Shown here: one piece after another, positions 164 to 57,224 of the stretch
Numbering within the stretch: position 1 is the first letter of the stretch
Layout of the letters: every line of letters begins with the position of its first letter
Assembly (NCBI GenBank): GCA_031416315.1
Contig: JANOTL010000223.1
Coordinates: 1-64,000 of the forward strand
DNA from: Pseudomonadota bacterium
GTDB lineage: Bacteria > Bdellovibrionota_B > Oligoflexia > Oligoflexales > CAIYRB01
Direction of reading: 5' to 3'
Length of the DNA: 64,000 nt
Program-made: the position numbers and the translations under genes
Notes under the pieces: model-generated
What the model was told of the DNA's origin: nothing
The model's input: the letters and a program-made list of their open reading frames with translations, nothing else
Databases searched by the model: none

Positions 164-1078
164 CTAAATCGAATCCAACCCCCAAACAAAAGCCCTCTCC
201 AACTCCCGCACGTCGCCGCCCAAGGGCAATACCCAAGCCATCGCATGCTCCTCCACCGACTCCGCCACCCCTGCCAACGCGTCGCGCATTTCCCGCTCCA
301 CCGTTCCAGGCGCCAAAATCACCAGCTGCTCGTACCCCGCCGCCTCCCCCAAGGCCCGCGCCACGGCCAAAGCCGCCGCCGGCGTCTTCCCGCCCCACTC
401 GTGCACGACGCCCTGCATGTCGTGGCCGCGCCCCATGACGCCCCACCCCTCGGCGCTCGCGAGCCCGTGCATCCCCGGGATCGTCAACTGCTCGGCAAAT
501 TCCCGCGCGTTTCTCTTCAATGTCCACGGGATGCGCGGCCTTTGCGCCAGTAGCCTTTGCGCCTTCAGCTCGTCCAAGGCGCCGATCGCGGCGCAAGCCC
601 CGGCGCCGCGAGGCAGCCGCTCGACCTTCGCCGTCACCCGCAGCTCGCGCCCGGTCGCCTGAAACCCCAGCTTTTGATAAAATTCCTGGAGATCACTCCA
701 GAGCAAAAGCGCCCTTAGGCCCGCCCGACGCGCTTCCCCGCAAAGCTCTTCGAAGAGCGTAGACATCAACCCGCGACCGCGGAGACTGGCATCAGTGGCG
801 ACATTGCCTACCAGCGCGACCGGCAAGGTTACGCCCGTGCTCGACACGAAGGCGCGCGGCCAGAAGTTCGCGTGCGCGGCGACGCGCGTCTGGCCCAGCG
901 CGAGGCAGCGGCTGAACTCGCCGCCGCGGAGCACGAGCGGATACTCGGCGCCGATCGCGAAGCGTGCGCCCGGCAAGGCGATGTGGCTCGGCCCACGGAG
1001 TGACGCGGAGAGCAGCGCGTCGCGTGCCGCCAGGTCTGCCGCTGCCTCGGGCCTATAAATGACGGGACTCTTTTCCAC
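164..1078 (-). CDS. GNAT family N-acetyltransferase (Eis-like)
   Basis: Motifs VGNVATDASLRGRGLM and FYQKLGF; GTG start chosen at 1078 because the longer ORF overlaps fliD. Confidence 0.8.
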   Translation of the reverse strand: MEKSPVIYRPEAAADLAARDALLSASLRGPSHIALPGARFAIGAEYPLVLRGGEFSRCLALGQTRVAAHANFWPRAFVSSTGVTLPVALVGNVATDASLRGRGLMSTLFEELCGEARRAGLRALLLWSDLQEFYQKLGFQATGRELRVTAKVERLPRGAGACAAIGALDELKAQRLLAQRPRIPWTLKRNAREFAEQLTIPGMHGLASAEGWGVMGRGHDMQGVVHEWGGKTPAAALAVARALGEAAGYEQLVILAPGTVEREMRDALAGVAESVEEHAMAWVLPLGGDVRELERAFVWGLDSI

Positions 1079-7768: not shown

Positions 7769-10700
7769 GTGAAAGCGGCGCCGTTTAAGAAACTCCTCGT
7801 CGCCAACCGCGGCGAGATCGCGGTCCGCATCCTGCGCGCCGCCGCCGAGCTCGGCATCAAGACGGTGGCGGTCTACTCGCACGAGGACCGCTTCGCGCTC
7901 TTCCGTTACAAGGCCGACGAGGCCTACAAGATCGGGGAGCCCGGAAAGCCCATCGCGGCCTACCTCGACGCCGCCAACATCGTGCAGAAGGCCGTGGAGT
8001 GGGGCGTCGACGCCATTCACCCGGGCTACGGCTTCCTCTCCGAGTCGGGGGAGTTCGCGCGGCTTGCGGCCGAGGCCGGCATCAAGTTCATCGGCCCCTC
8101 GCCGAAGGTGCTGGACGCGTTCGGCGACAAGGTCACGGCGAAAACCATCGCGGTCAAGGCCGGCCTGCCGGTCATTCCCGGAATCCGGGAGTCGCTGCCG
8201 ACGCTCGAGTCGGCGCGCAAGGTCGCGCGCGAGCTCGGCTACCCGGTGACCTTGAAAGCGGTCTCCGGCGGCGGCGGCAAGGGCATCCGCATGATCATGG
8301 CGGAGTCCGAGTTGGACAACGCCTTCGTCCGCGCCCAGTCCGAGGCGATGACGAGCTTCGGCCGCCCCGACGTCTACCTCGAGAAGATGATCGTCGCGCC
8401 GAAGCACATCGAGGTGCAGATCGTCGGCGACGAGCACGGCCGCATCGTCCACCTCTACGAGCGCGACTGCTCGATCCAACGCCGCCATCAGAAGGTGGTC
8501 GAGGTCGCGCCCGCCCTGGGAATCAAGCAGGAAACGCGTGAAAAGCTCTACGGCTACGCGCTCGCCGTGGCGAAGGAGGTGGGCTACTACGGGCTCGGCA
8601 CCGTCGAGTTCCTGGTCGACGCCAAGGAAGAGATCTACTTCCTCGAGGTGAATCCGCGCATCCAAGTCGAGCACACCGTCACCGAGATGATCACGGCGGT
8701 CGACCTCGTTCACACCTCGATCCTGATCGCGGCCGGCCACCACCTGGCGAGCCCCGGGATCGGCATCCCGGAGTCGGGGCCTTCGGCGCCGCGCGGCGTC
8801 GCCATCCAATGCCGCGTCACCACCGAGGACCCGGCGAACGACTTCGCCGCCGACACGGGCGAGATCATCGCGTTCCGTCCCGGCTTGGGCTTCGGCATCC
8901 GCCTGGACGAGGGCCAGGCGACGGCCGGCGGCGTGATCACGCCGCACTACGATTCCCTGCTCGTGAAGGTTACGGCTTGGGCGACGACGCTCGAGGCCGC
9001 GGCCGCGAAGATGCAGCGGAGCCTAACGGAGTTCCGGATCCGCGGCGTCAAGCACAACATCGCGCTCCTCCGCAACGTCGTCGCCCATCCGGTCTTCCTC
9101 GACTCGTCGATGACGACCGCCTTCTTCGAGAAGCATCCGGAGATCTTCAATCTTCTGAAGGCGCGCGACCGCGCGACGCGCATGCTGCGCTACCTGGCGA
9201 ACGTCACCGTCAACAACCCGCACGACTTGCCGCAGAACGAGCCGCGCGGCGAGCGCGATGCGCCCGAAGTGTCGCTCTCCATCCCAGAGCACTCGGCTTT
9301 TGCCTACGACCCGGCGCAGCAGACGGCAAAGGAAGTCTACGCGAAGGGCGGCATGCGCGCCCTGAACGACTGGATCCGTCGCCAGGGCGCCCTCCTCGTC
9401 ACCGATACGACGATGCGCGACGCGCACCAGTCGCTCTTCGCCACGCGCCTCAGGACGAGAGACATCCTAAAGATCGCGCCCTTCTACCGTAAGTACGCGC
9501 ACCGGTTCTTCTCGCTGGAAGTGTGGGGCGGCGCGACCTTCGATACCTGTCTGCGTTTCCTAAAGGAAGACCCCTGGGAGCGCCTGGCGCTCGTGCGCGA
9601 GCAAGTGCCGAACGCCTTGCTGCAGATGCTGCTTCGCGGGGACAACGCGGTCGGCTACACGAACTACCCGGAGTGGGTGATCCGCGACTTCATCCGCCAC
9701 ACGGTGGACTCCGGCCTCGACGTCTTCCGCATCTTCGACTGCTTGAACCAGCCGGACAAGATGAAGGTGGCGATCGAGGAGGTGAAGAAGCGCGGCGCGA
9801 TCGCCGAAGTGTGCGTCTGCTACACGGGCAACGTCGTGTCGCCGGTCGAGACGAAGTACACGCTCGCGTACTATCTGAACGTCGCCAAAGAGCTCGTCTC
9901 GATGGGCGCCGACATCCTCTGCATCAAGGACATGGCCGGACTTCTCCGGCCGAAGGCGGCCTCCGTTTTGATCCGGGCCCTGCGCGAGACGGTCGACGTG
10001 CCGATCCATCTCCACATGCACGACACCGCCGGCGCCGGCGTCGCGACCCTCCTCGAAGCGGCGCAAGCGGGTTGCGAGATCGTCGACGGCGCCGTCAGCT
10101 CGATGGCCGGGCTCACCTCCCAGCCTTCGATCAACGCGCTCGTGGCCGCGATGGGCGGCGATCCGAAATGTCCCGAGGTGCCTTTGCCCGTCTTGGACGA
10201 GCTGGCGCGCTACTGGGAAGCCGTGCGCTCGATGTACCAGGACTTCGACCCGGGGATTCGCGCCACCTCGACCGACGTCTACGAGCACGAGATCCCGGGC
10301 GGCCAGTACTCCAACCTCTTCGAGCAGGCGCGCAAGGTCGGGGTCTCCGCGAAGGAGTTTCACGAGCTCACCAAGCGCTACAAAGAAGTGAACGAGCTCT
10401 TCGGCAACATCATCAAGGTGACGCCGTCGTCGAAGGTCGTGGGCGACATGGCGCTTCTCCTGCAGAAGCACGGCCTCACCGGGAAGGAGCTGCGCGCGAA
10501 GAAGCCGAAGCTCGACTATCCTGACTCCGTCGTCAGCTTCTTCAAGGGCCACATGGGCGTGCCCTACGGCGGCTTCCCGGCGGACGTGAGAGCGATCGTC
10601 CTCGGCGACAACGCGCCGCCGCCGGCGGCTCTGGCCGTCGAGGAGACGGACTCCTTCGACCAGGTGCGCGAGGCTTTGGCGAAGAAGCTGAAGCGCCCGA

Positions 10701-43525: not shown

Positions 43526-44644
43526 GTGAGCGAGCGCGACAACCCGCGAGAACTGTTGAATTCCTTATTGAGGAAAGCCGCCTCCGCCCTGAGGCTCGCC
43601 CGGACCCGGCCGGTGCTGGCGGACACGATTCTCGCCGACGAAGATGAAACGGAGCTGAGAGCCCGCATTCTCGACGCCTCGGGCGAGCTCGACGCCCCCC
43701 ACCTCACCATCGCCTCCGACGGCCTCGACCTCGGCGCGAAGCTCGAGCTCGAGCGCGCCTTGAAGGCCGAGCTGGAGCTGCCGGACCTCACGATCAACTT
43801 CAGGCGCCAAAAACCTCTCACCGGGCCTCAGACGCCCTTGCCAGCGCGGGGCGCGCAGGCGCCTTTCGGCCTGACCTTCGACCGCAAGGCCATCCCGGGC
43901 GTGCGGGAGGTGATCGTCGTGGCCTCGGGCAAAGGCGGCGTCGGTAAATCGACCGTTGCGGTGAACCTGGCGGCGGCCCTGGCGAAGCGCGGCAGCAAGG
44001 TCGGTCTCCTCGACGCGGACATCTACGGGCCCTCGGCGCCGATGATGCTCGGCGCGCGCGGGACGATGCCGGTTTTCGAAGGCAAGGTCGTGCCGATCCA
44101 AGCGCACGGCGTCGGCGTCGTCTCGTTCGGCTTCCTGACCGACACGACGCAGCCGGTGATCTGGCGCGGGCCGCTCGTCGCGAAGGCTTTGCGTCAGCTC
44201 TGCTTCGACGTCGTGTGGGGCGAGCTCGACTATCTCGTCGTCGACCTGCCGCCGGGGACGGGCGACGTGCAAATGACCTTGATCGAGAGCCTGCCGATCC
44301 ACGGCGCGGTGATCGTGACGACGCCACAGGACGTGGCGCTGCTCGACGCGCACAAGGCGCTCACGATGTTCGAGAAGCTCGAGGTGCCCGTGATCGGCCT
44401 CGTCGAAAACATGGCCCATTTCCACTGCCCGAGCTGCGGCCACGAGGAGGCGATCTTCGGCGAGGGCGGCGGCGACCGGATGGCGCTCGAGCGGAAGCTG
44501 AAAGTGATCGCGCGGCTCCCCTTGGGGCGGATCGTACGCGAGCGGGGTGACTCCGGGCAGCCTCTAGCGCTGGACGCGGACGGCCCGTTTGTCTTGGCGT
44601 TTCGGGAGCTTGCGGAGAAGGTGGCAAAGGCCGGGTGGCAGTGA
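43526..44644 (+). CDS. mrp: Mrp/ApbC/NBP35 Fe-S cluster carrier ATPase
   Basis: SGKGGVGKST, DADIYGPS, IWRGP, DLPPGTGD, VTTPQ, ENM..F.CP.C. Confidence 0.92.
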   Translation: MSERDNPRELLNSLLRKAASALRLARTRPVLADTILADEDETELRARILDASGELDAPHLTIASDGLDLGAKLELERALKAELELPDLTINFRRQKPLTGPQTPLPARGAQAPFGLTFDRKAIPGVREVIVVASGKGGVGKSTVAVNLAAALAKRGSKVGLLDADIYGPSAPMMLGARGTMPVFEGKVVPIQAHGVGVVSFGFLTDTTQPVIWRGPLVAKALRQLCFDVVWGELDYLVVDLPPGTGDVQMTLIESLPIHGAVIVTTPQDVALLDAHKALTMFEKLEVPVIGLVENMAHFHCPSCGHEEAIFGEGGGDRMALERKLKVIARLPLGRIVRERGDSGQPLALDADGPFVLAFRELAEKVAKAGWQ

Positions 44645-44724: not shown

Positions 44725-44740
44725 TGGCACGACGAGTGCA
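44725..44740 (+). promoter_or_regulatory. Sigma54 promoter TGGCACGACGAGTGCA
   Basis: GG(-24) and GC(-12) at canonical spacing; imperfect palindrome GTCAAATTTTTCGAC at 44647-44661 could be an activator site. Confidence 0.7.
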
Positions 44741-44750
44741 ATGAGAACGG

Positions 44751-44935
44751 GGCGATCGGGCTCCCCGACTCGCAGGCCCCCTCGGTAAGATTGGTCGTTC
44801 CACTTTGGTCTACGCCCCGTAGGCCGTCCCCACTGCTGTTCTTGTTGCTTACCCGTTGCCCGCTCCCACACCCCCGCCGCCCACGACCAACTTACCACTC
44901 CATCCAAATGGCGCTCCTCCCCGGAGCGCCATTTC
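44751..44935 (+). ncRNA. Putative sigma54-dependent sRNA, copy A
   Basis: 5' hairpin 44752-44773; stem 44784-44798/44883-44896 enclosing a C/U-rich loop; terminal hairpin 44906-44934; motifs shared with copy B. Confidence 0.6.
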
Positions 44936-47091: not shown

Positions 47092-47946
47092 TCAGGCGAC
47101 GATAGGCTGGAACGAGACCTTGCTCTCGTCGTCGACGAGGAAGAAATGGTTCGCCGGGATCTTCTTCCAGTCCTCGCGCAATCCGGTCAGTTTTTCCGAA
47201 ACGACCAAGACGGCATGCTCTTTGGCATCGGCCGGCACCATCCGGCAAATGCCGTCCTCGCACTCGTAACGGCTGCCTTCGCTCACGTAGAGGGAGAGGG
47301 GCTCTTCCTCGGTCGTGACGAAGCGGGTGCCGATCATGTACTTGCCGTCGGTGACGACCATGTTGAGGTAGGTGCCGTCTTTGACGCCTTGCGCCTTCTT
47401 CAGGGCCTCGACCTCGGTGATCGTCTGCTGCATCGCGGAGACCATCGCCTGGATGCCGTAGAGACCGTTGTGCTTCAGCATCTTGTCGATGAAGAGCGCG
47501 AAGAAGTGCTCGGAGTCGGTGCCGCCGCGAAGCCACGCGTAGACCTCGTCGGAGAGGCCGCGGCGCATCTCGCGCTTGATCTGGTCGAAGCCCTCGATCG
47601 AGCCGTTGTGCATCATCAGAAAGCGGTCGTAGAAGAACGGGTGGCAGTTGGCCTCGGACGTCTCGCCGAAGCTGGCCGCGCGCACGTGCGCGAAGATCAC
47701 CGGCGCCTCGATCTTCGGCGCCATGGTGCGGAGGTTCCGGTTCGACCAAGCCGGGTGGACCGAGACGAAGACCGCCGGCGTGGTCGAGAGCTGCGGCTGG
47801 TACCAGCCGATGCCGAAGCCGTCGCCGTTCAGGGGCTCCTCCAGCTCCTTGGCGTCGTAGCTCTGGTGGATCAGCGAATTCTTGGGCTGATAAAGGAGCT
47901 TGTCCAGGATGATCGGCGCGCCCTTGTAGGCTAAGAGCCGGCACAT
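47092..47946 (-). CDS. Class II glutamine amidotransferase (EgtC/YafJ/Dug3-like)
   Basis: N-terminal MCR, NGDGFGIGWY, AHVRAA, NCHPF, MHNG, G.TDSE. Confidence 0.9.
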   Translation of the reverse strand: MCRLLAYKGAPIILDKLLYQPKNSLIHQSYDAKELEEPLNGDGFGIGWYQPQLSTTPAVFVSVHPAWSNRNLRTMAPKIEAPVIFAHVRAASFGETSEANCHPFFYDRFLMMHNGSIEGFDQIKREMRRGLSDEVYAWLRGGTDSEHFFALFIDKMLKHNGLYGIQAMVSAMQQTITEVEALKKAQGVKDGTYLNMVVTDGKYMIGTRFVTTEEEPLSLYVSEGSRYECEDGICRMVPADAKEHAVLVVSEKLTGLREDWKKIPANHFFLVDDESKVSFQPIVA

Positions 47947-48002
47947 GGTGTTGTCTCCTTACGACATATACGCCGATTCTATCATGGAATAGAATCGCTT
48001 CC

Positions 48003-48704
48003 ATGCCGAGCCGCGACAAATACTCCATCCACCGGCAGCCCGACGACGTGACTTGCGGGCCGACGTGCCTGCACTCGCTCTACGCGTATTACGCCGACGG
48101 GATCACGCTGGACGAGGTCATCGGGCAGGTGCCGATGCTGGAGGGTGGCGGCACGCTCGCCTGCGTCTTGGGGAGCCACGCCCTCCGACGCGGCTACAAG
48201 GTGTGGATCTATACGTTCAATCTCACCGTCTTCGACCCGACCTGGTTCTCGCTCCCGCGCGAGGCGCTGGCCGAGAAGCTCCGCCTCCAGATGAAAGAGA
48301 AGAAAAAGCCGAGGCTCCACGTCGCCTCGCAAGCCTACATCGACTTTCTGAACCTGGGCGGAGAGATCAAGTGCCACGACCTCTCGGAGGGCCTCCTCAG
48401 CGAGTATCTCCTGCAAGGCATTCCGATCCTCACCGGCCTGAGCGCCACTTATCTTTACAAGTCGATGCGCGAGTACGGCGACTATCCTATCTCCGACGAC
48501 CTCAAGGGCGAGCCGCAAGGCCATTTCGTCGTCATCACCAGCTACGATCCCGAAGAGCACGCCGTCACCATCGCCGATCCCTATCATCCCGAGTCGATGG
48601 TCAAAGGCCGCACGTACAAGGTGTCGATGGAGCATCTCGTCTGCTCCATCCTCCTCGGCGTCATGACCTACGACGGCAACCTGCTCATCGTGACCAAATC
48701 GTGA
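48003..48704 (+). CDS. C39-like papain-fold peptidase
   Basis: Q....TCGPTCL, GHFVV, IADP catalytic pattern. Confidence 0.8.
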   Translation: MPSRDKYSIHRQPDDVTCGPTCLHSLYAYYADGITLDEVIGQVPMLEGGGTLACVLGSHALRRGYKVWIYTFNLTVFDPTWFSLPREALAEKLRLQMKEKKKPRLHVASQAYIDFLNLGGEIKCHDLSEGLLSEYLLQGIPILTGLSATYLYKSMREYGDYPISDDLKGEPQGHFVVITSYDPEEHAVTIADPYHPESMVKGRTYKVSMEHLVCSILLGVMTYDGNLLIVTKS

Positions 48705-48726
48705 GCCCAAAGACAAAGGCATCCTG

Positions 48727-50195
<1,469 letters not shown>

Positions 50196-50199
<4 letters not shown>

Positions 50200-51458
50200 G
50201 TCGTACCGAGCACCTTCATCTCTGGGCAGGGTACGGCATCGAGATGGAGTACATGATCGTCGACCGAAAGACCCTGGCGGTGCGCCCGATCTCCGACGAG
50301 CTTTTGACCGCGGCCGCCGGCAAGCTCGAGAACGAGGTCGAGTTCGGCGACATGGCCTGGTCCAACGAGCTCGTGATGCACGTCATCGAGGTGAAGACCA
50401 ACGGCCCCTCCGACGAGGTGACGCGCTACGGCGAGAAGTTCATGGTCGAGGTGCGAAGGATCAACGCCTTGCTCGAGAAAAAGGGCGCGATGCTGATGCC
50501 GACGGCGATGCACCCTTTCTTCGAGCCGGACGAGGAAACGAAGCTCTGGCCGCACGACAGCCGAGACATCTACGACCGCTACAACGAGATCTTCGATTGC
50601 CGCGGGCACGGCTGGTCGAACCTGCAGTCGGTGCATATCAACTTCCCGTTCTTCGATCACGGCGCGGGGGGCGAGTTCGGGAGGCTGCACGCCGCGATCC
50701 GCATGGTTTTGCCGCTCCTGCCGGCCTTGGCCGCCTCGTCCCCGATCTACGGCGGACGCGCCAACGGCCTGAAGGACAACCGGCTCGAGTTTTACCGTAT
50801 GAACCAGCAGCGCCTGCCGGCGTTGACGGGCGGCGTCATCCCAGAGCGGGCGTTCACACGCGAAGAGTATGCGGCAGAAGTCTTCAAGAAGGTGATGGCC
50901 GAGGTCCTTCCTTACAACGAGGACGGTTTACTGGAGGAGGAGTGGCTCAACTCGCGCGGCGCGATCGCGCGCTTCGACCGCAACGCGATCGAGATCCGCG
51001 TGCTCGACATCCAAGAGACGCCGAAAGCCGATCAAGCCGTGATCACCGCCGTGATCGGCTTCGTCCAGGCTTTGGCGGCCGGTGAGTTTCTGGCGCCCGA
51101 TAGGCAGCGCGAGTGGGAGCAAGAGCCGTTGCGCCGCATTTTCGAGGCCTGTGTGAAGGGCGGAAGCGAGACGGAGATCGAGGATCGCGCCTATCTGGAT
51201 GCCCTGCATTATCCAGGAAAGTCTCCGGCACGGGCGCGAGACGTCTGGAAGCACGTGATCGAGCGCAGCGCGCGGCGGGACGTGGTGGCGCCGTGGTTCA
51301 AGGCGGTGGAGGCGGAGCTCGGCGTCTATCTCAGCCAGGGAACACTCGCGGAGCGCATCGTTTCCGCGGCCGGCTCGACGACGAAGCGGGAAGACGTCGT
51401 GGACATCTACCGCGAGCTTTGTCTCTGCCTCGCCGAAGGCCGGATGTTTCGGGCGTGA
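50196..51458 (+). CDS. Glutamate-cysteine ligase family 2 (GCS2) carboxylate-amine ligase
   Basis: YGIEMEYMIVD, NELV.HVIE.KT, HGWSNLQSVHIN, ASSP, NSRGAIARFDR.AIEIRVLD. Confidence 0.88.
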
Positions 51459-52174
51459 AGCCGGGAGCGCTCGTCGTAAGTTGTGAGCATGGCGGAAACC
51501 AAGTGCCGCGCGAGTATGCGCGGTTTTTTCGGGGCGCGGCGGCGCGGCAGGCTTTGGCGAGTCATCGGGGCTGGGATCCGGGGGCGCTGGCGGCGGCGCG
51601 GGCTTTGGCGCGGGCGTTGGGGCGGGAGATCGAGGTGAGCGCGTTGGTGACGGCGGAGGTCACGCGCTTGCTCTGCGACTTGAATCGCTCCGAGGGGCGC
51701 AGGGAGGCGTTCTCCGAGTTCTCACGGGTGATCGTGGGGGCTGAGCGCGAGGAGTTGCTGGCGCGCTTTCATCGGCCGTATCGAGACGAGCTGCGGGCGG
51801 CCCTGCGCGCGGCGATCGCGAAGAAGGGGAGGGTGCTTCACCTTTCGTCCCATTCTTTCACGCCGAAGCTCGACGGCGTGGCGCGCGAGGCGGAGATCGG
51901 GGTTTTGTACGATCCGCGGCGGAAGTGGGAAGCCGAGGTCGCGGCCGAGCTCGCGGCAGGCATTCGAGCGGCGGTCCGCGCGCGGGGCTTGGCGTGGCGG
52001 GTGCGGCGGAATTATCCGTACAAAGGGTGGACGGATGGCTTGACGACGCAGATGCGCAAGGAGTTCGCGGGGGGGAGGTACGCCGGGGTGGAGGTGGAAG
52101 TGAGGCAAGGAATGGAAGTTGGCGAGGTCGTCGGGGTCGTGGGGGATGGGATTCGGAGGGTTTTTGGGGGTTAG
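51455..52174 (+). CDS. N-formylglutamate amidohydrolase family protein
   Basis: SCEHGGN.VP, HRGWDPGA, RLLCDLNRS, HSFTP, RRNYPY.G, EVEV.Q. Confidence 0.85.
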   Translation: MKPGALVVSCEHGGNQVPREYARFFRGAAARQALASHRGWDPGALAAARALARALGREIEVSALVTAEVTRLLCDLNRSEGRREAFSEFSRVIVGAEREELLARFHRPYRDELRAALRAAIAKKGRVLHLSSHSFTPKLDGVAREAEIGVLYDPRRKWEAEVAAELAAGIRAAVRARGLAWRVRRNYPYKGWTDGLTTQMRKEFAGGRYAGVEVEVRQGMEVGEVVGVVGDGIRRVFGG

Positions 52175-53321: not shown

Positions 53322-54050
53322 CTACCAGGGCAGCTCTTTGCCCTGGAAATCGAGAAAACGGCCGGAATCCGCGCGCGTAAGCCCTAGGATCACGTTCGCC
53401 AGGCCGAGGACCGAGTCGTCGACCGAGGTCGGCGCGCTCTTGCCGCCCATCTCGGTCTGCACCCAGCCAGGATGCAGGACGACGCAGGTGAGCTTTTTGC
53501 GGTCGAGAGAGAGCGTCTTGTTGAACATGTTAACGGCGGCCTTCGAGATGCGGTAGGCGTAGCTCCCGCCCGTGGTGTTGTCCTCGATCGAGCCCATCTT
53601 GCTCGAAAGCGTCGCGACCACCGGCTCAGGCGCGAGCTCGAGGTTGTCGAGAAAGGCCTGCGTCACGCGGATCGGGCCTAGCGCGTTGACGGTGAAGGCC
53701 TTCAAGATGCCGCCTTCGGTGAGGTCGCCCAAGGTCTCTTCGCGCTCCGGAAAAACTCCGGCGTTATTCACGAGAAGGTCGACCTTCTCGCCGGAAAGCG
53801 CCAGACGCGCGTCGCGGAGGTCGTCTTCGCGCGTCACGTCGAGGTTCAGGATGCGGACCCTGCCGGGATAGCCGTGCTCGTGCTCCCACAGGTCGCGGCA
53901 ACCTTCGGCGTTCCGCGCCGTGGCGATGACGTTGTAGCGCTTGCGGATGAGCTCTTGCACGAGTGCCAGGCCGATGCCGCGGCTCGCGCCGGTGATCAGC
54001 GCCGTCGGATAGTCGGGGAACTGCGGGAACGAGGTCTTTTGCGGGCTCAT
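53322..54050 (-). CDS. Short-chain dehydrogenase/reductase, CsgA (C-factor)-like
   Basis: TGASRGIG, NNAG, SSKMGSI, YRISKAA, HPGWVQT.MGG. Confidence 0.9.
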   Translation of the reverse strand: MSPQKTSFPQFPDYPTALITGASRGIGLALVQELIRKRYNVIATARNAEGCRDLWEHEHGYPGRVRILNLDVTREDDLRDARLALSGEKVDLLVNNAGVFPEREETLGDLTEGGILKAFTVNALGPIRVTQAFLDNLELAPEPVVATLSSKMGSIEDNTTGGSYAYRISKAAVNMFNKTLSLDRKKLTCVVLHPGWVQTEMGGKSAPTSVDDSVLGLANVILGLTRADSGRFLDFQGKELPW

Positions 54051-54277
54051 GCTGCTCACTCCGTGAGTTGCGTGGCGAAGGTGGCGGCGTCCTTCGCCGG
54101 CAGCTTGCAGGTGGCTCATGCTGTGGTTCTAGAACGGGCGCGCGGCGGAGGGAAGAGGCGTCGGAGCTGTTCAGAGATTAGACTACTGCGCGGCTTTTTC
54201 GGGCCGCCCGGGCGCCGCCGACCGCATTTTGCATCGTTTTGAACCGCTTCATCGAGACACGTCGCGTACATACGACC

Positions 54278-54293
54278 TGGCACGCGAGCTGCA
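54278..54293 (+). promoter_or_regulatory. Sigma54 promoter TGGCACGCGAGCTGCA
   Basis: GG(-24) and GC(-12) at canonical spacing with no plus-strand gene downstream. Confidence 0.7.
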
Positions 54294-54303
54294 CAAGGGC
54301 AAG

Positions 54304-54480
54304 CGTCCCGACGATCAAGCATCGGACGGACAAGGCTACATCAGATCTGTCGGTTGGACCCGTTGCCTGCTGTGCTCCCTGCTGATTCCCGCTCCCACTC
54401 CCCCGTCCCACTCCCGACAAAGCCCCTACCGGCCGACAGGTCAAAAACGAAGAAGAGAAGGCCCCAAGCGGGCCTTCTCG
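54304..54480 (+). ncRNA. Putative sigma54-dependent sRNA, copy B
   Basis: 5' hairpin 54304-54328; 14-bp stem 54344-54357/54429-54442 with G-U pairs enclosing a C-rich loop; terminal hairpin 54455-54479. Confidence 0.6.
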
Positions 54481-54506
54481 ACGTTCGTGAGGTTCTGCCA
54501 GAGGGT

Positions 54507-56462
54507 TCAGGCGTGAGCGGCGACGCGCCTCAGGACGGCGATCGCCGCGTCGAGGGTCGCGGCATCGGTGGCCTCGGGCCAGGCGCCGAAAACGATGAGA
54601 CGTTTGGCGTTTTTCCCGTCGAAAGCGCCGGCCATCAACCGGGCGCCCGGGCTTTGCCAAGCGGCCAACGGTTTGAAGTCGACGGCGCGAGCGGCGTCGT
54701 AGGCGGCTTGCCATCCGTCGGCGTAGCGCGAAAGGCCCGCGACTAGGCCTTGCGTGACGTAGCCGTACAGATTCTGCTCTTCGAGCAGCGGCGGCGTAGC
54801 GCCGTCGGCTTTCCAGACGCAGATGGGCTTTGCCTGCTTGCCGTCCTGGACGAGGATCAAAGCCTTCGTCAGGCCGGCGGCGGCGAGCGCCGGGGCGGCA
54901 CGGCGGAGGGCGCTCGAGAGGTCTTTGGCCATCGTCAGGCCGACGAGCGCGCGATTCAAAGCGGCGACGCGCGCCGCGGCGGCGGTGGTGAAGTCTTCGG
55001 CTTCGGACTGCAGCTCGTCGGGCTCCGGCTCCAGAGCAACGCCGGCGGCTCTGCGCGGCGCGGGCTGCGGCGTCGCGAGGAGGTCGGCCTCCTCGTCAGG
55101 AGATAGATCGTCAAAACCCGGAAACTCGCCGTCGAGTTCGAGCGCGTCTTCGTTTTCGTCCGTGGCCGGAGCCGGGAGCGAGTTGCCGCCGTCTTCGAGC
55201 GCGAGCTCGCCTTCGAGGTCGAACGCGCCCAGCGGGTCTTTTTCGGCCGCGGGAGGCGGCAGGTCGAGCGGGGCGTCGGCCTCCATCGACAGCTCGCCGA
55301 GGGGTTCGTCGAGAAAGCCGTCAGGCGCCGGGGGGAGGCCGTCGTCGTCCATCGCCAGGTCGGCCGCCGGCGCGCGCGGACCGTCCTCCGTCATTTCGAG
55401 CTCGTCGAGAAGGTCGGGCTCCGCCGGCGCGGCGTCCTCCGCCAGATCGAGCTCAGCGAGCAGGTCGGCATCATCGAGCGCTGACGGGGTGCGGGCGGCC
55501 GGCTTCGCCGCATTCTCGGCCTCGTCGAGCGCTTCGAAGAGGTCGGGCTCCGGCGGTGCGGCACTTTCGGCGACGTCGAGCTCGCCGAGCAGGTCGTCCT
55601 CATCGAGGAAGGCACCGGCCGAGTCTGGATCTTTCGTGGGTGCCTCGCTTATGTCGAGCTCGTCGCCGATCGAGTCGTCGTCGAGCAAGTCGTCACCGTC
55701 TTTTTCGTCGCTCTCGGCCGTCTTCGCGGTCGCCACTGGCGCAGCGTCGTCGTCCAGCCCAAGGCCGGCGAGGGGATCGGCGTCCGCGTCGCTCATGCCG
55801 AGATCGGCGAGGGGATCGCCGCCGCCTTCGAGGTCGAGATCGGCGAGAGGATCGCTTGCGGACGCATCCTCGGGGCCGAAGTCGAGCTGGTCGTCGAGCC
55901 CCAGGTCGGCGAGCGGATCCGGAGCTCTGGCGGCGACCGGCGCCGGCTTCGCCGCGGCTTTCGCCGGCGGCGGTGGCTCAGTCTCAAAGCCGAGCTCGTC
56001 GCCCGTATCCTCGACGCCGTCGCTGAAGTCGATCGTGGCGAGGTCGTCGTCCCCGTCGGCCTCGGCCGCGGGCGAGATGGCGCCGAAACCTTCGCTGAGG
56101 TCGAGGTCGTCGCCCGAGGCGAGATCGCCTTCGGCGTCGGGCGAGGCGCCAAGATCCTCGAACGGCGCCGTCGTCTTCTTCTTCGCCTGCGCCTTCGGTG
56201 CCGCGAACGGATCGTCGAGGTCGCCTAAGCCGTCGGGGCCTTCCAGCTCGTCGAGCCCCTCAAGACCGAGGAGCTCGTCGTCCGCGCCGCCCGCCGTGAC
56301 GCCTGCGGCGCCTTCGATGTCGTCCATGTCGCTCATGCCCGCTGGATCGGGCTGCGTGACGGCGCCCGAGAGGCCGGTGAGGCCGGAGTCCTCGGCGGCG
56401 TCCAGCGTGTCGACCGTGGGACCGGCGTCTTCGCCATCGGTTTGCGTCAGCTCGCCGAACAA
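54507..56462 (-). CDS. Very acidic low-complexity protein; probably the C-terminal part of the 57224 ORF
   Basis: D/E/L/A/P-rich repeats (DPLADL); same frame as upstream ORF across a single TAG. Confidence 0.6.
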   Translation of the reverse strand: MFGELTQTDGEDAGPTVDTLDAAEDSGLTGLSGAVTQPDPAGMSDMDDIEGAAGVTAGGADDELLGLEGLDELEGPDGLGDLDDPFAAPKAQAKKKTTAPFEDLGASPDAEGDLASGDDLDLSEGFGAISPAAEADGDDDLATIDFSDGVEDTGDELGFETEPPPPAKAAAKPAPVAARAPDPLADLGLDDQLDFGPEDASASDPLADLDLEGGGDPLADLGMSDADADPLAGLGLDDDAAPVATAKTAESDEKDGDDLLDDDSIGDELDISEAPTKDPDSAGAFLDEDDLLGELDVAESAAPPEPDLFEALDEAENAAKPAARTPSALDDADLLAELDLAEDAAPAEPDLLDELEMTEDGPRAPAADLAMDDDGLPPAPDGFLDEPLGELSMEADAPLDLPPPAAEKDPLGAFDLEGELALEDGGNSLPAPATDENEDALELDGEFPGFDDLSPDEEADLLATPQPAPRRAAGVALEPEPDELQSEAEDFTTAAAARVAALNRALVGLTMAKDLSSALRRAAPALAAAGLTKALILVQDGKQAKPICVWKADGATPPLLEEQNLYGYVTQGLVAGLSRYADGWQAAYDAARAVDFKPLAAWQSPGARLMAGAFDGKNAKRLIVFGAWPEATDAATLDAAIAVLRRVAAHA

Positions 56463-56570: not shown

Positions 56571-57224
56571 CTAGAGCGCGGCGTCCGCGTCGACGTCCTC
56601 GACCTCTTCGATCGGCCCGGCGAAGTCCTCTTCCTCGCGCAAGGCGGTCGCCGCGCCCGCGTCGAATGCGGGCGCACGCGAGACGGCGCGGGGCGCCGTG
56701 GAGCCGCCGGCGCGGTCCAGCAGGCGCAGCCGGCGGTTCGCCGAGCTCGCGTGGTTGATGATCAGCTCCTCGAGGTGCGAGGTCTGCGGCCGGTAGTTTT
56801 TGATCAGCTTCTCGAGGCCCAGGCGCACTTGGGTGAACGTGGCGATGTGCGGCGTGACGCGGTAGCCGGTGAAGAACTCGACCTGCTTGATCGTGTCGTG
56901 ATCGAGGGGATCGACCATCGCGACGTGCAGAACCTGGCCCTCGACGCGCAGCGGCATGACCTCGAGGCGCTCGACGAGCGGAGGGTCTAGCGTGCCCCAA
57001 GCCTCGCGGCTCGATTCGCGCGCGAGGTCCTTGGCGCACATCTTCCAGCGCGTGCGCTCCGCGAGGAAGGCGGCGAGCTCGTCCTCGTCCAAGAGTCCCA
57101 AGGCGAGGACGGCCCGCGCGAAGGCGGAGCCGTGCGTGCCGCACGTGCGCCGGATGGTGCGGCGGTCCGCCTCGGTGAGGAGGCCTTCCTCGACCAATAG
57201 GGTTCCCAGACCGGAAGTTCCCAT
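56571..57224 (-). CDS. GspE/PilB N-terminal (MshEN/T2SSE_N-like) domain protein, ends at an in-frame TAG
   Basis: LGTLLVEEGLLT...LGLLDEDEL..FLA; VMPL...L.VAMVDPLD...I..VEF.TG. Confidence 0.75.
   Translation of the reverse strand: MGTSGLGTLLVEEGLLTEADRRTIRRTCGTHGSAFARAVLALGLLDEDELAAFLAERTRWKMCAKDLARESSREAWGTLDPPLVERLEVMPLRVEGQVLHVAMVDPLDHDTIKQVEFFTGYRVTPHIATFTQVRLGLEKLIKNYRPQTSHLEELIINHASSANRRLRLLDRAGGSTAPRAVSRAPAFDAGAATALREEEDFAGPIEEVEDVDADAAL

Follow-up and report, generated by a model that had tools for sequence, protein, structure and literature searches.

Organization of the locus

The window analysed here is a stretch of 64,000 nucleotides from contig JANOTL010000223.1 (assembly GCA_031416315.1) of a bacterium in the order Oligoflexales, the genome of which measures 6.36 Mb at 65% GC and is referred to below as the host genome. 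Within the window lie two predicted small RNAs, copy A and copy B, each positioned behind a sigma54-type promoter box (Table 1). Their neighbours are an apbC gene, a gene for a short-chain dehydrogenase (SDR), and an MshEN-domain gene, and no cbrB-like activator gene adjoins the RNA.

Table 1. Predicted features surrounding the two RNA copies, by position in the window
Feature	Position	Strand	Evidence
apbC/Mrp ATPase gene, conserved 5' of the RNA locus	43526..44644	+	Pfam ParA/NUBPL; synteny
sigma54 box, copy A	44725..44740	+	sequence match
predicted small RNA, copy A	44751..44934	+	fold, model match, synteny
SDR gene, divergent from copy B	53322..54050	-	Pfam, gene calls
sigma54 -24/-12 promoter box, copy B (TGGCACGCGAGCTGCA)	54278..54293	+	sequence match
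predicted small RNA, copy B, ~176 nt	54304..54479	+	fold, covariance-model match 54344-54442, orthologues
5' hairpin, CAAGC pentaloop	54305..54331	+	fold; RNAalifold consensus of 8 B-type RNAs
long closing stem, 54344-54357 paired with 54429-54442	54344..54442	+	fold, covariation
open loop: three YGYUG (54361, 54368, 54380), then C-rich tract	54358..54428	+	motif scan
terminal hairpin, 10 bp, CAAGC loop	54455..54479	.	fold, covariation
hypothetical gene, convergent, ends at terminal hairpin	54507..56462	-	no Pfam match
MshEN-domain gene	56571..57224	-	Pfam; synteny

A sequence check found every feature that the initial annotation had described for copy B in the place given for it. The 5' end of the RNA was set from promoter spacing and is accurate to within 1-2 nt in either direction. 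The predicted fold (z = -2.2) includes a closing stem of 14 bp, three of which are G-U pairs, and the 71-nt loop that this stem holds is 51% C and 15% G, with YGYUG motifs whose predicted unpaired probability ranges from 0.57 to 0.74. Among the shorter sequence features, ACCCGTTGCC lies at 54358 and CCCGCTCCCACTCCCCCG at 54388, CTGCTG occurs at 54367 and 54379, and TCCC occurs six times within 54376-54412 and once more at 54306. A CAAGC pentaloop is found at the tip of the 5' hairpin (54316-54320) and again at that of the terminal hairpin (54465-54469), and CAAGC, CUAGC, and UAAGC loops recur in the B-type orthologues, in which the 5' hairpin carries CAAGC or CUAGC.

The terminal hairpin passes the terminator rule solely on the minus strand in the host genome, and plus-strand U tails follow it in the B orthologues; taken together, these observations make it probable that the hairpin terminates transcription in both directions, serving the convergent gene as well. 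The SDR gene serves as context only, and outside the host family it is not kept beside the RNA. In some relatives the MshEN match lies inside a far longer frame that ends at the RNA, and the MshEN gene and the hypothetical gene may there be one fused gene.

Copy A has the same stem and loop as copy B with an extra inner hairpin (fold z = -3.0), and its motifs lie at 44834, 44843, and 44854. An A-type RNA was found directly 3' of apbC in 5 of 11 relatives (one of the 11 being cut by a contig end) and a B-type RNA divergent from the SDR gene in 4 of 11, with further B-type copies nearby. In other families, single-copy RNA loci have apbC on their upstream side, a convergent MshEN gene on their downstream side, or both; since these landmarks bracket copies A and B in the host genome, the two copies are probably duplicates that arose from one ancestral site, as far as gene order can tell. 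One relative (G004) carries two tandem A-type copies plus one B, and some A-type copies are without a clear terminator and have same-strand genes downstream. Between copies A and B, positions 47092-52174 encode a class II glutamine amidotransferase, a C39-like peptidase, an RLAN/RimK ATP-grasp ligase, a GCS2 ligase, and an N-formylglutamate amidohydrolase, a cluster that directly follows the A-type RNA in several relatives.

A conserved family of structured RNAs

Copies A and B belong to one conserved structured RNA family. A BLAST-type DNA search of 41 genomes returned short chance matches and no real homologue, so synteny and covariance models were needed. The first model, which described the stem and loop, left the promoter out, and was built from 11 seeds, found a match in 20 of the 95 genomes searched from the order, with all 12 of the host family among them. 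The second, built from 31 members and run on 104 genomes of the phylum with a completeness of at least 85%, found a match in 35. By family, these were present in f1 (8/8), f7 (1/1), f11 (1/1), f13 (16/20), and f15 (8/16), with no match in f12 (13 genomes), f18 (27), f5 (4), f4 (3), or f2, f16, and f17 (2 each). The model searches scored 35-40 candidates per genome and missed members, and four genomes were added later, one by synteny and fold (G038) and three by model (G055, G057, and G025). Two loose promoter-plus-motif patterns gave many chance matches, and the count was restricted to members that a model, or fold together with synteny, had confirmed. The total stands at no fewer than 45 genomes from 8 families of Oligoflexales. 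One of the closest named relatives of the neighbouring SDR comes from Pseudobacteriovorax, a genus that NCBI assigns to Oligoflexia, Oligoflexales, and a B-type RNA is found there too. A syntenic RNA was not seen in G013 or G036.

Of 46 members, 45 carry a sigma54 box 30-77 nt 5' of the stem, versus 2 of 3513 control windows. Sixteen of these 46 had first been chosen with the promoter in view; among members found by the promoter-free model alone, the box was present in 29 of 30. The lone member without an intact box (G009:C255) retains a decayed one, and its GCTGTT tract is expanded. This locus (L171, positions 671-813, minus strand) is a copy B paralogue with a loop motif grown to 12 overlapping copies, and it is a possible pseudogene or repeat expansion. 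When the 55 strict sigma54 boxes of the host genome were compared, copies A and B tied with one mRNA leader for the most C-rich downstream window. The host genome has an rpoN gene, and a GAFTGA-like motif occurs in 12 of its proteins. CGTTTTGAA, which occurs at 54235 (copy B) and 44704 (copy A) and had drawn attention as an element shared by the two upstream regions, proved to lie upstream of only 2 of the 46 members, both in the host genome, and was rejected as an activator site. The upstream DNA of the two copies is otherwise unrelated, and it is plausible that different activators would feed a common output, as had been suggested.

The closing stem covaries: in the model-fitted alignment 94% of cells were paired and 13 of 13 pairs had two-sided changes. 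In an independent MAFFT alignment of 8 B-type RNAs, RNAalifold recovered all three helices, with a two-sided change in 22 of 29 pairs. The architecture of the family is a covarying stem of 13-20 bp around a G-poor loop of ~65-100 nt. The earlier proposal that selection acts on a family of structured RNAs with sigma54-type promoters, in which the stems vary and covary and the loop is conserved, is supported. Rfam 15 gave no match in the window, including at E<=10 over 54100-54600, and for 10 homologous loci it gave one unrelated chance match away from the RNA. The family is uncatalogued in Rfam, and it belongs to neither CrcZ nor CsrB.

Two further loci of the host genome were considered. A third sigma54-driven candidate small RNA (locus L213, G000:C198:24415, minus strand) has a stem around a C-rich loop (AUCCU/CCUCCC/AUCCCC) followed by a U-tailed hairpin; YUG repeats are absent, and the family model gives no match there. 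G000:C16:26119 was rejected as a third copy, being instead a motif-bearing mRNA leader.

The conserved loop signal

The pentamer YGYUG, often in tandem as (YUG)n, occurs 113 times in 31 loops versus 9.5 times in shuffles (maximum 23 in 1000). The initial annotation had singled out CCCGCTCCCAC as the key loop motif; this sequence was present in 2 of the 31 loops and was rejected as a family motif, the conserved signal being the YGYUG repeats. Spacing between motifs is variable (3, 9-10, or 13-15 nt), and C/U degeneracy affects three positions. Four loops hold 0-1 strict motifs, and these amount to three B-type loops when a near-identical pair is counted once.

The same repeats in mRNA leaders

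Leaders of the host genome were scanned on the basis of our own gene calls (5206 genes) with a Markov model of the loops and a chosen cut-off of 10. At this cut-off there were 11 sense versus 0 antisense leaders, both in a set of 3270 leaders and again in one of 3493, and the contrast fades at lower cut-offs (25 versus 7 at a score of 4). A plain motif count gave 11 sense versus 1 antisense leader with at least four motifs (among 3280 leaders) and 91 versus 63 with at least two, and single motifs were not enriched in leaders genome-wide or beside GGAG. The class of motif-bearing leaders is small and defined by clusters. These clusters sit just 5' of the ribosome-binding site, with the last motif 2-32 nt before the ATG, and they agree with the loops in the most enriched 5-mers. 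The motifs show no reading-frame phase, for which reason a leader-peptide reading was rejected.

The genes behind these leaders include those for a PLD-like protein, a nuclease, an M10-like peptidase, and a VWA protein. Nine of the 11 look exported against a background of 40% (p 0.009) by one crude rule, and by another rule there was no excess. A sigma54 link of the top 11 leaders was not significant (2/11, p 0.11); in one relative (G023), two lipoprotein leaders carry a sigma54 box and the motif together.

Two small genes provide conserved candidate targets. The product of one, a 108-aa protein (G000:C142:8541-8867, minus strand), was found in 68 of 104 genomes, and all 30 of its best-scoring orthologue leaders (host included) hold at least three motifs, with 189 motifs in sense versus 9 in antisense, a test, the best of those run, that is independent of gene calls and in which related genomes are not independent samples. 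Just 4 of 17 weaker orthologues have at least three motifs. In metagenomes, 80 loci less 5 that were too short and 7 duplicates left 68, some of which overlap the genome set; at 45 of these the leader holds at least three motifs, and the motif occurs 272 times in sense versus 8 in antisense and 38 in shuffles. The leader repeats are absent in distant homologues and in four distinct viral ones. Co-occurrence with the RNA is imperfect. In f2, f3, and f12, as in four of the five f18 genomes, the leader has 0-1 motifs and there is also no RNA match. G024, G018, G026, and G100 have motif-rich leaders and no detected RNA (the syntenic site falling at a contig end in two), and G025 has the RNA and a 108-aa gene leader free of the motif.

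A sigma54-type box precedes the 108-aa operon in 6 of 6 relatives viewed, and the Shine-Dalgarno site behind the repeats of the 108-aa gene is weak-looking. This locus (L196, G000:C142:9038-9250 and 8541-8867, minus strand) is a conserved two-gene operon for small basic proteins of 70 and 108 aa, both of which begin with a VV(S/D)L-like motif. Homologues of the 108-aa family on viral contigs are shorter and have no leader repeats. The predicted structure of the 108-aa protein (pLDDT 71, pTM 0.30) gave generic helix matches only (Z<=4), and an Atlas search with the 108-aa protein and the second candidate, a 117-aa protein, returned unnamed clusters only; these results neither favour nor oppose a role of the 108-aa protein as an RNA-binding protein that regulates itself. 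The gene for the 117-aa protein has 69 motifs in sense versus 16 in antisense, with at least three motifs in 11 of 30 leaders, and a loose sigma54 box was counted in 26 of 30 leaders without a control set. The 117-aa protein (locus L197, G000:C153:90217-90570, plus strand) is acidic and is found in 51 of 104 genomes, roughly tracking the RNA.

Candidate protein partners

Hfq (PF17209) was matched in none of the 104 genomes, while five control genomes gave a match, and the host genome has one csrA. Genes with an RRM domain are found in 104 of 104 genomes, so their presence does not discriminate; the host genome encodes four RRM proteins, and the leaders of these four genes carry no motif cluster of their own. 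Single-RRM proteins are the leading candidate partners, by elimination only. The sole clear KhpA-type KH protein of the genome (locus L300, G000:C142:10743-10976, plus strand) is encoded at a distance of 2 kb from the 108-aa operon, and none of the genes predicted around it is for a ribosomal protein.

Comparison with known regulatory RNAs

CrcZ and CrcY of Pseudomonas are described as paralogous RNAs that are transcribed by RpoN with an activator and antagonise a motif-binding translational regulator (PMC5113210, PMC13501541). The present family resembles them in its paralogous copies and its RpoN-type promoter (45 of 46 members, by sequence match only). It differs from them in having a (YUG)n motif rather than CA/AANAANAA (1 match in 31 loops), in a lineage where Hfq was matched in 0 of 104 genomes, in its one stem-closed loop, and in lacking an adjoining cbrB-like gene and an Rfam match. 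CsrB presents its sites in many small hairpin loops, whereas the sites of the present family lie in one large loop. Cuckoo RNAs carry CCUCCUCCC in each of several hairpin loops, and this motif had 0 matches in our 31 loops. CsrB, CsrC, and RsmZ carry many copies of a motif found in leaders, where the sites adjoin the Shine-Dalgarno sequence (PMC13443453, PMC13501541), and the CsrA homologues tested elsewhere still needed GGA according to the account in PMC13443453. A leader motif repeated in a small RNA and a single csrA in the host genome are points of likeness, whereas the repeated GGA of CsrB and RsmZ is absent here, with an average of 0.23 per loop.

Pxr of Myxococcus is reported as a lineage-restricted RNA of three stems with a predicted sigma54 promoter, which is located immediately after pxrR, the gene for an NtrC-like activator, and which exerts its action by way of the first stem's loop (PMC5684412). 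The family shares with Pxr the sigma54-type promoter, the three stems, and the lineage restriction, and differs in that it has no adjacent activator, carries its motifs in a large loop, and lacks an Rfam match. The FopS/RbpB system of Bacteroides comprises paralogous sRNAs from a lineage that has RRM proteins and no Hfq (PMC11697453, PMC13370968), and FopS is described as repressing by base pairing to translation-initiation regions, not as a sponge of RbpB, and as having housekeeping-type promoters (PMC11697453). Paralogy, the lack of a detected Hfq, and the presence of RRM proteins are common to both, but in the present case the match between leaders and RNA is in the sense orientation, not the antisense one, and the promoter is of the sigma54 type. 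Eight attack-phase sRNAs of Bdellovibrio are reported as without homologues elsewhere (PMC3627812). Among the abstracts covered by our literature searches, none concerned noncoding RNAs of Oligoflexales or a bacterial UGUUG-binding protein; RNA-motif tables in supplements or in unpublished work could include this family.

Alternative explanations

The repeats could be aimed at another RNA instead of a protein, with a CA-rich (CAA/CAG-repeat) small RNA pairing with the (YUG)n leaders and the family RNA acting as its sponge. Same-sense mimicry of the leaders fits such an RNA equally well, a seed complementary to the motif would be A/C-rich and accessible, and sponges of sRNAs are a known class (PMC13501541). 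We nevertheless think it unlikely, given that none of 104 genomes gave an Hfq match, that no obvious free-standing CAR-repeat RNA gene was recognised by eye in 37 intergenic clusters, and that the variable spacing and C/U degeneracy suit a protein site, even if G-U wobble could explain some of this. The C-rich tract raises the separate prospect of an Hfq-independent sRNA that pairs through UCCC/CUCC with Shine-Dalgarno sites, as RsaE-type and cuckoo-type RNAs do. The loops average 2.7 UCCC and 2.0 CUCC, and the multicopy FopS of Bacteroides works without Hfq (PMC11697453). Against this, the loop scored -26.0 kcal/mol over 700 sampled starts versus -26.1 to -27.0 kcal/mol for shuffles (a comparison in which a few true targets would not show), it pairs worse with the motif leaders, complements of its k-mers are not enriched in leaders, and the C tract is conserved in sequence in just 2 of 31 loops. 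Pairing of this kind would also leave the same-sense leader repeats unexplained, and there is only a small chance that it accounts for the family.

A long, C-rich, G-poor single strand might also serve as a decoy for a general machine with a liking for pyrimidines or GU, such as ribosomal protein S1, Rho, or a ribonuclease, in which case the leader repeats would be enhancers or decay signals, and the weak-looking Shine-Dalgarno site of the 108-aa gene would be in keeping with such a role. This seems quite improbable to us, as a specific degenerate triplet repeat is selected in the RNA and in the leaders and is restricted to some dozen genes; several families without the RNA have lost the repeat as well, and general machinery of this sort is expected to be intact in them. 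That there is no functional RNA at all, and that the locus consists of the terminator of the convergent gene with chance features, or of a cis-acting leader or short peptide, would agree with the host hairpin scoring as a terminator on the minus strand only and with those A-type copies that have no clear terminator and are followed by same-strand genes. It is very hard to reconcile with a plus-strand promoter that keeps a fixed position in 45 of 46 members, with the covariation of the long stem, and with the conservation of the loop motifs; moreover, an ATG of any kind is found in just 13 of 31 cores, and the downstream genes are convergent in many genomes, both host copies included, which argues that the RNA is not a cis leader. 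We give this last possibility scarcely any weight.

A putative sigma54-controlled sponge RNA

The same-sense, single-stranded motif copies, the poor fit of Hfq and CsrA as partners, and the want of support for antisense pairing lead us to favour a CrcZ/CsrB-like sponge that titrates a (YUG)n-binding translational regulator, a reading that we consider probable and in which both transcription of the RNA and the protein partner are inferred. As in RNAs of the protein-sequestering class, several single-stranded copies of a motif are present, and the motif occurs in sense in the candidate leaders. The strict strand bias and the placement of the motif inside a covarying loop further suggest that it is recognised at the level of RNA rather than DNA. 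Proteins that bind GU and CUG repeats exist in eukaryotes. The evidence that the RNA mimics leaders is new here; the initial annotation gave no mechanism.

Under the sponge mechanism, an enhancer-binding activator would switch on sigma54 transcription of the RNA, the long stem of which would protect it and hold 2-6 sites single-stranded. The RNA would then titrate the putative (YUG)n-binding protein that is otherwise bound to the same repeats in mRNA leaders, and translation of the (YUG)n-leader mRNAs would change as a result. Relief of repression is the default guess for the direction of this effect, because the clusters abut the Shine-Dalgarno site, with activation as the alternative. The regulon would consist mostly of exported proteins and lipoproteins together with two conserved small cytoplasmic proteins, several of these genes perhaps being sigma54-driven themselves, and the existence of paralogues A and B would allow one output to be driven by two activators.

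Known bacterial protein-sponge systems are few, those described in PMC13501541 being the ones for CsrA, Hfq/Crc, and RapZ. The present locus gives both halves of the evidence for another, a decoy RNA and a matching leader element, in a lineage that has no detectable Hfq and, in the literature covered, no described small RNAs. The RNA is a ready bait for the partner protein and the leader of the 108-aa gene a ready reporter, which makes the regulation of translation in this lineage directly testable. More tentatively, and with somewhat less than even confidence, we propose that the family may form part of an undescribed global post-transcriptional switch that is specific to Oligoflexales and parallel to Csr and Crc/Hfq, in which a sigma54 sponge RNA, a bacterial protein that reads (CUG/UUG)n repeats in the manner of those eukaryotic binders, and a regulon of exported enzymes and lipoproteins would time surface remodelling or the attack on prey or substrate.
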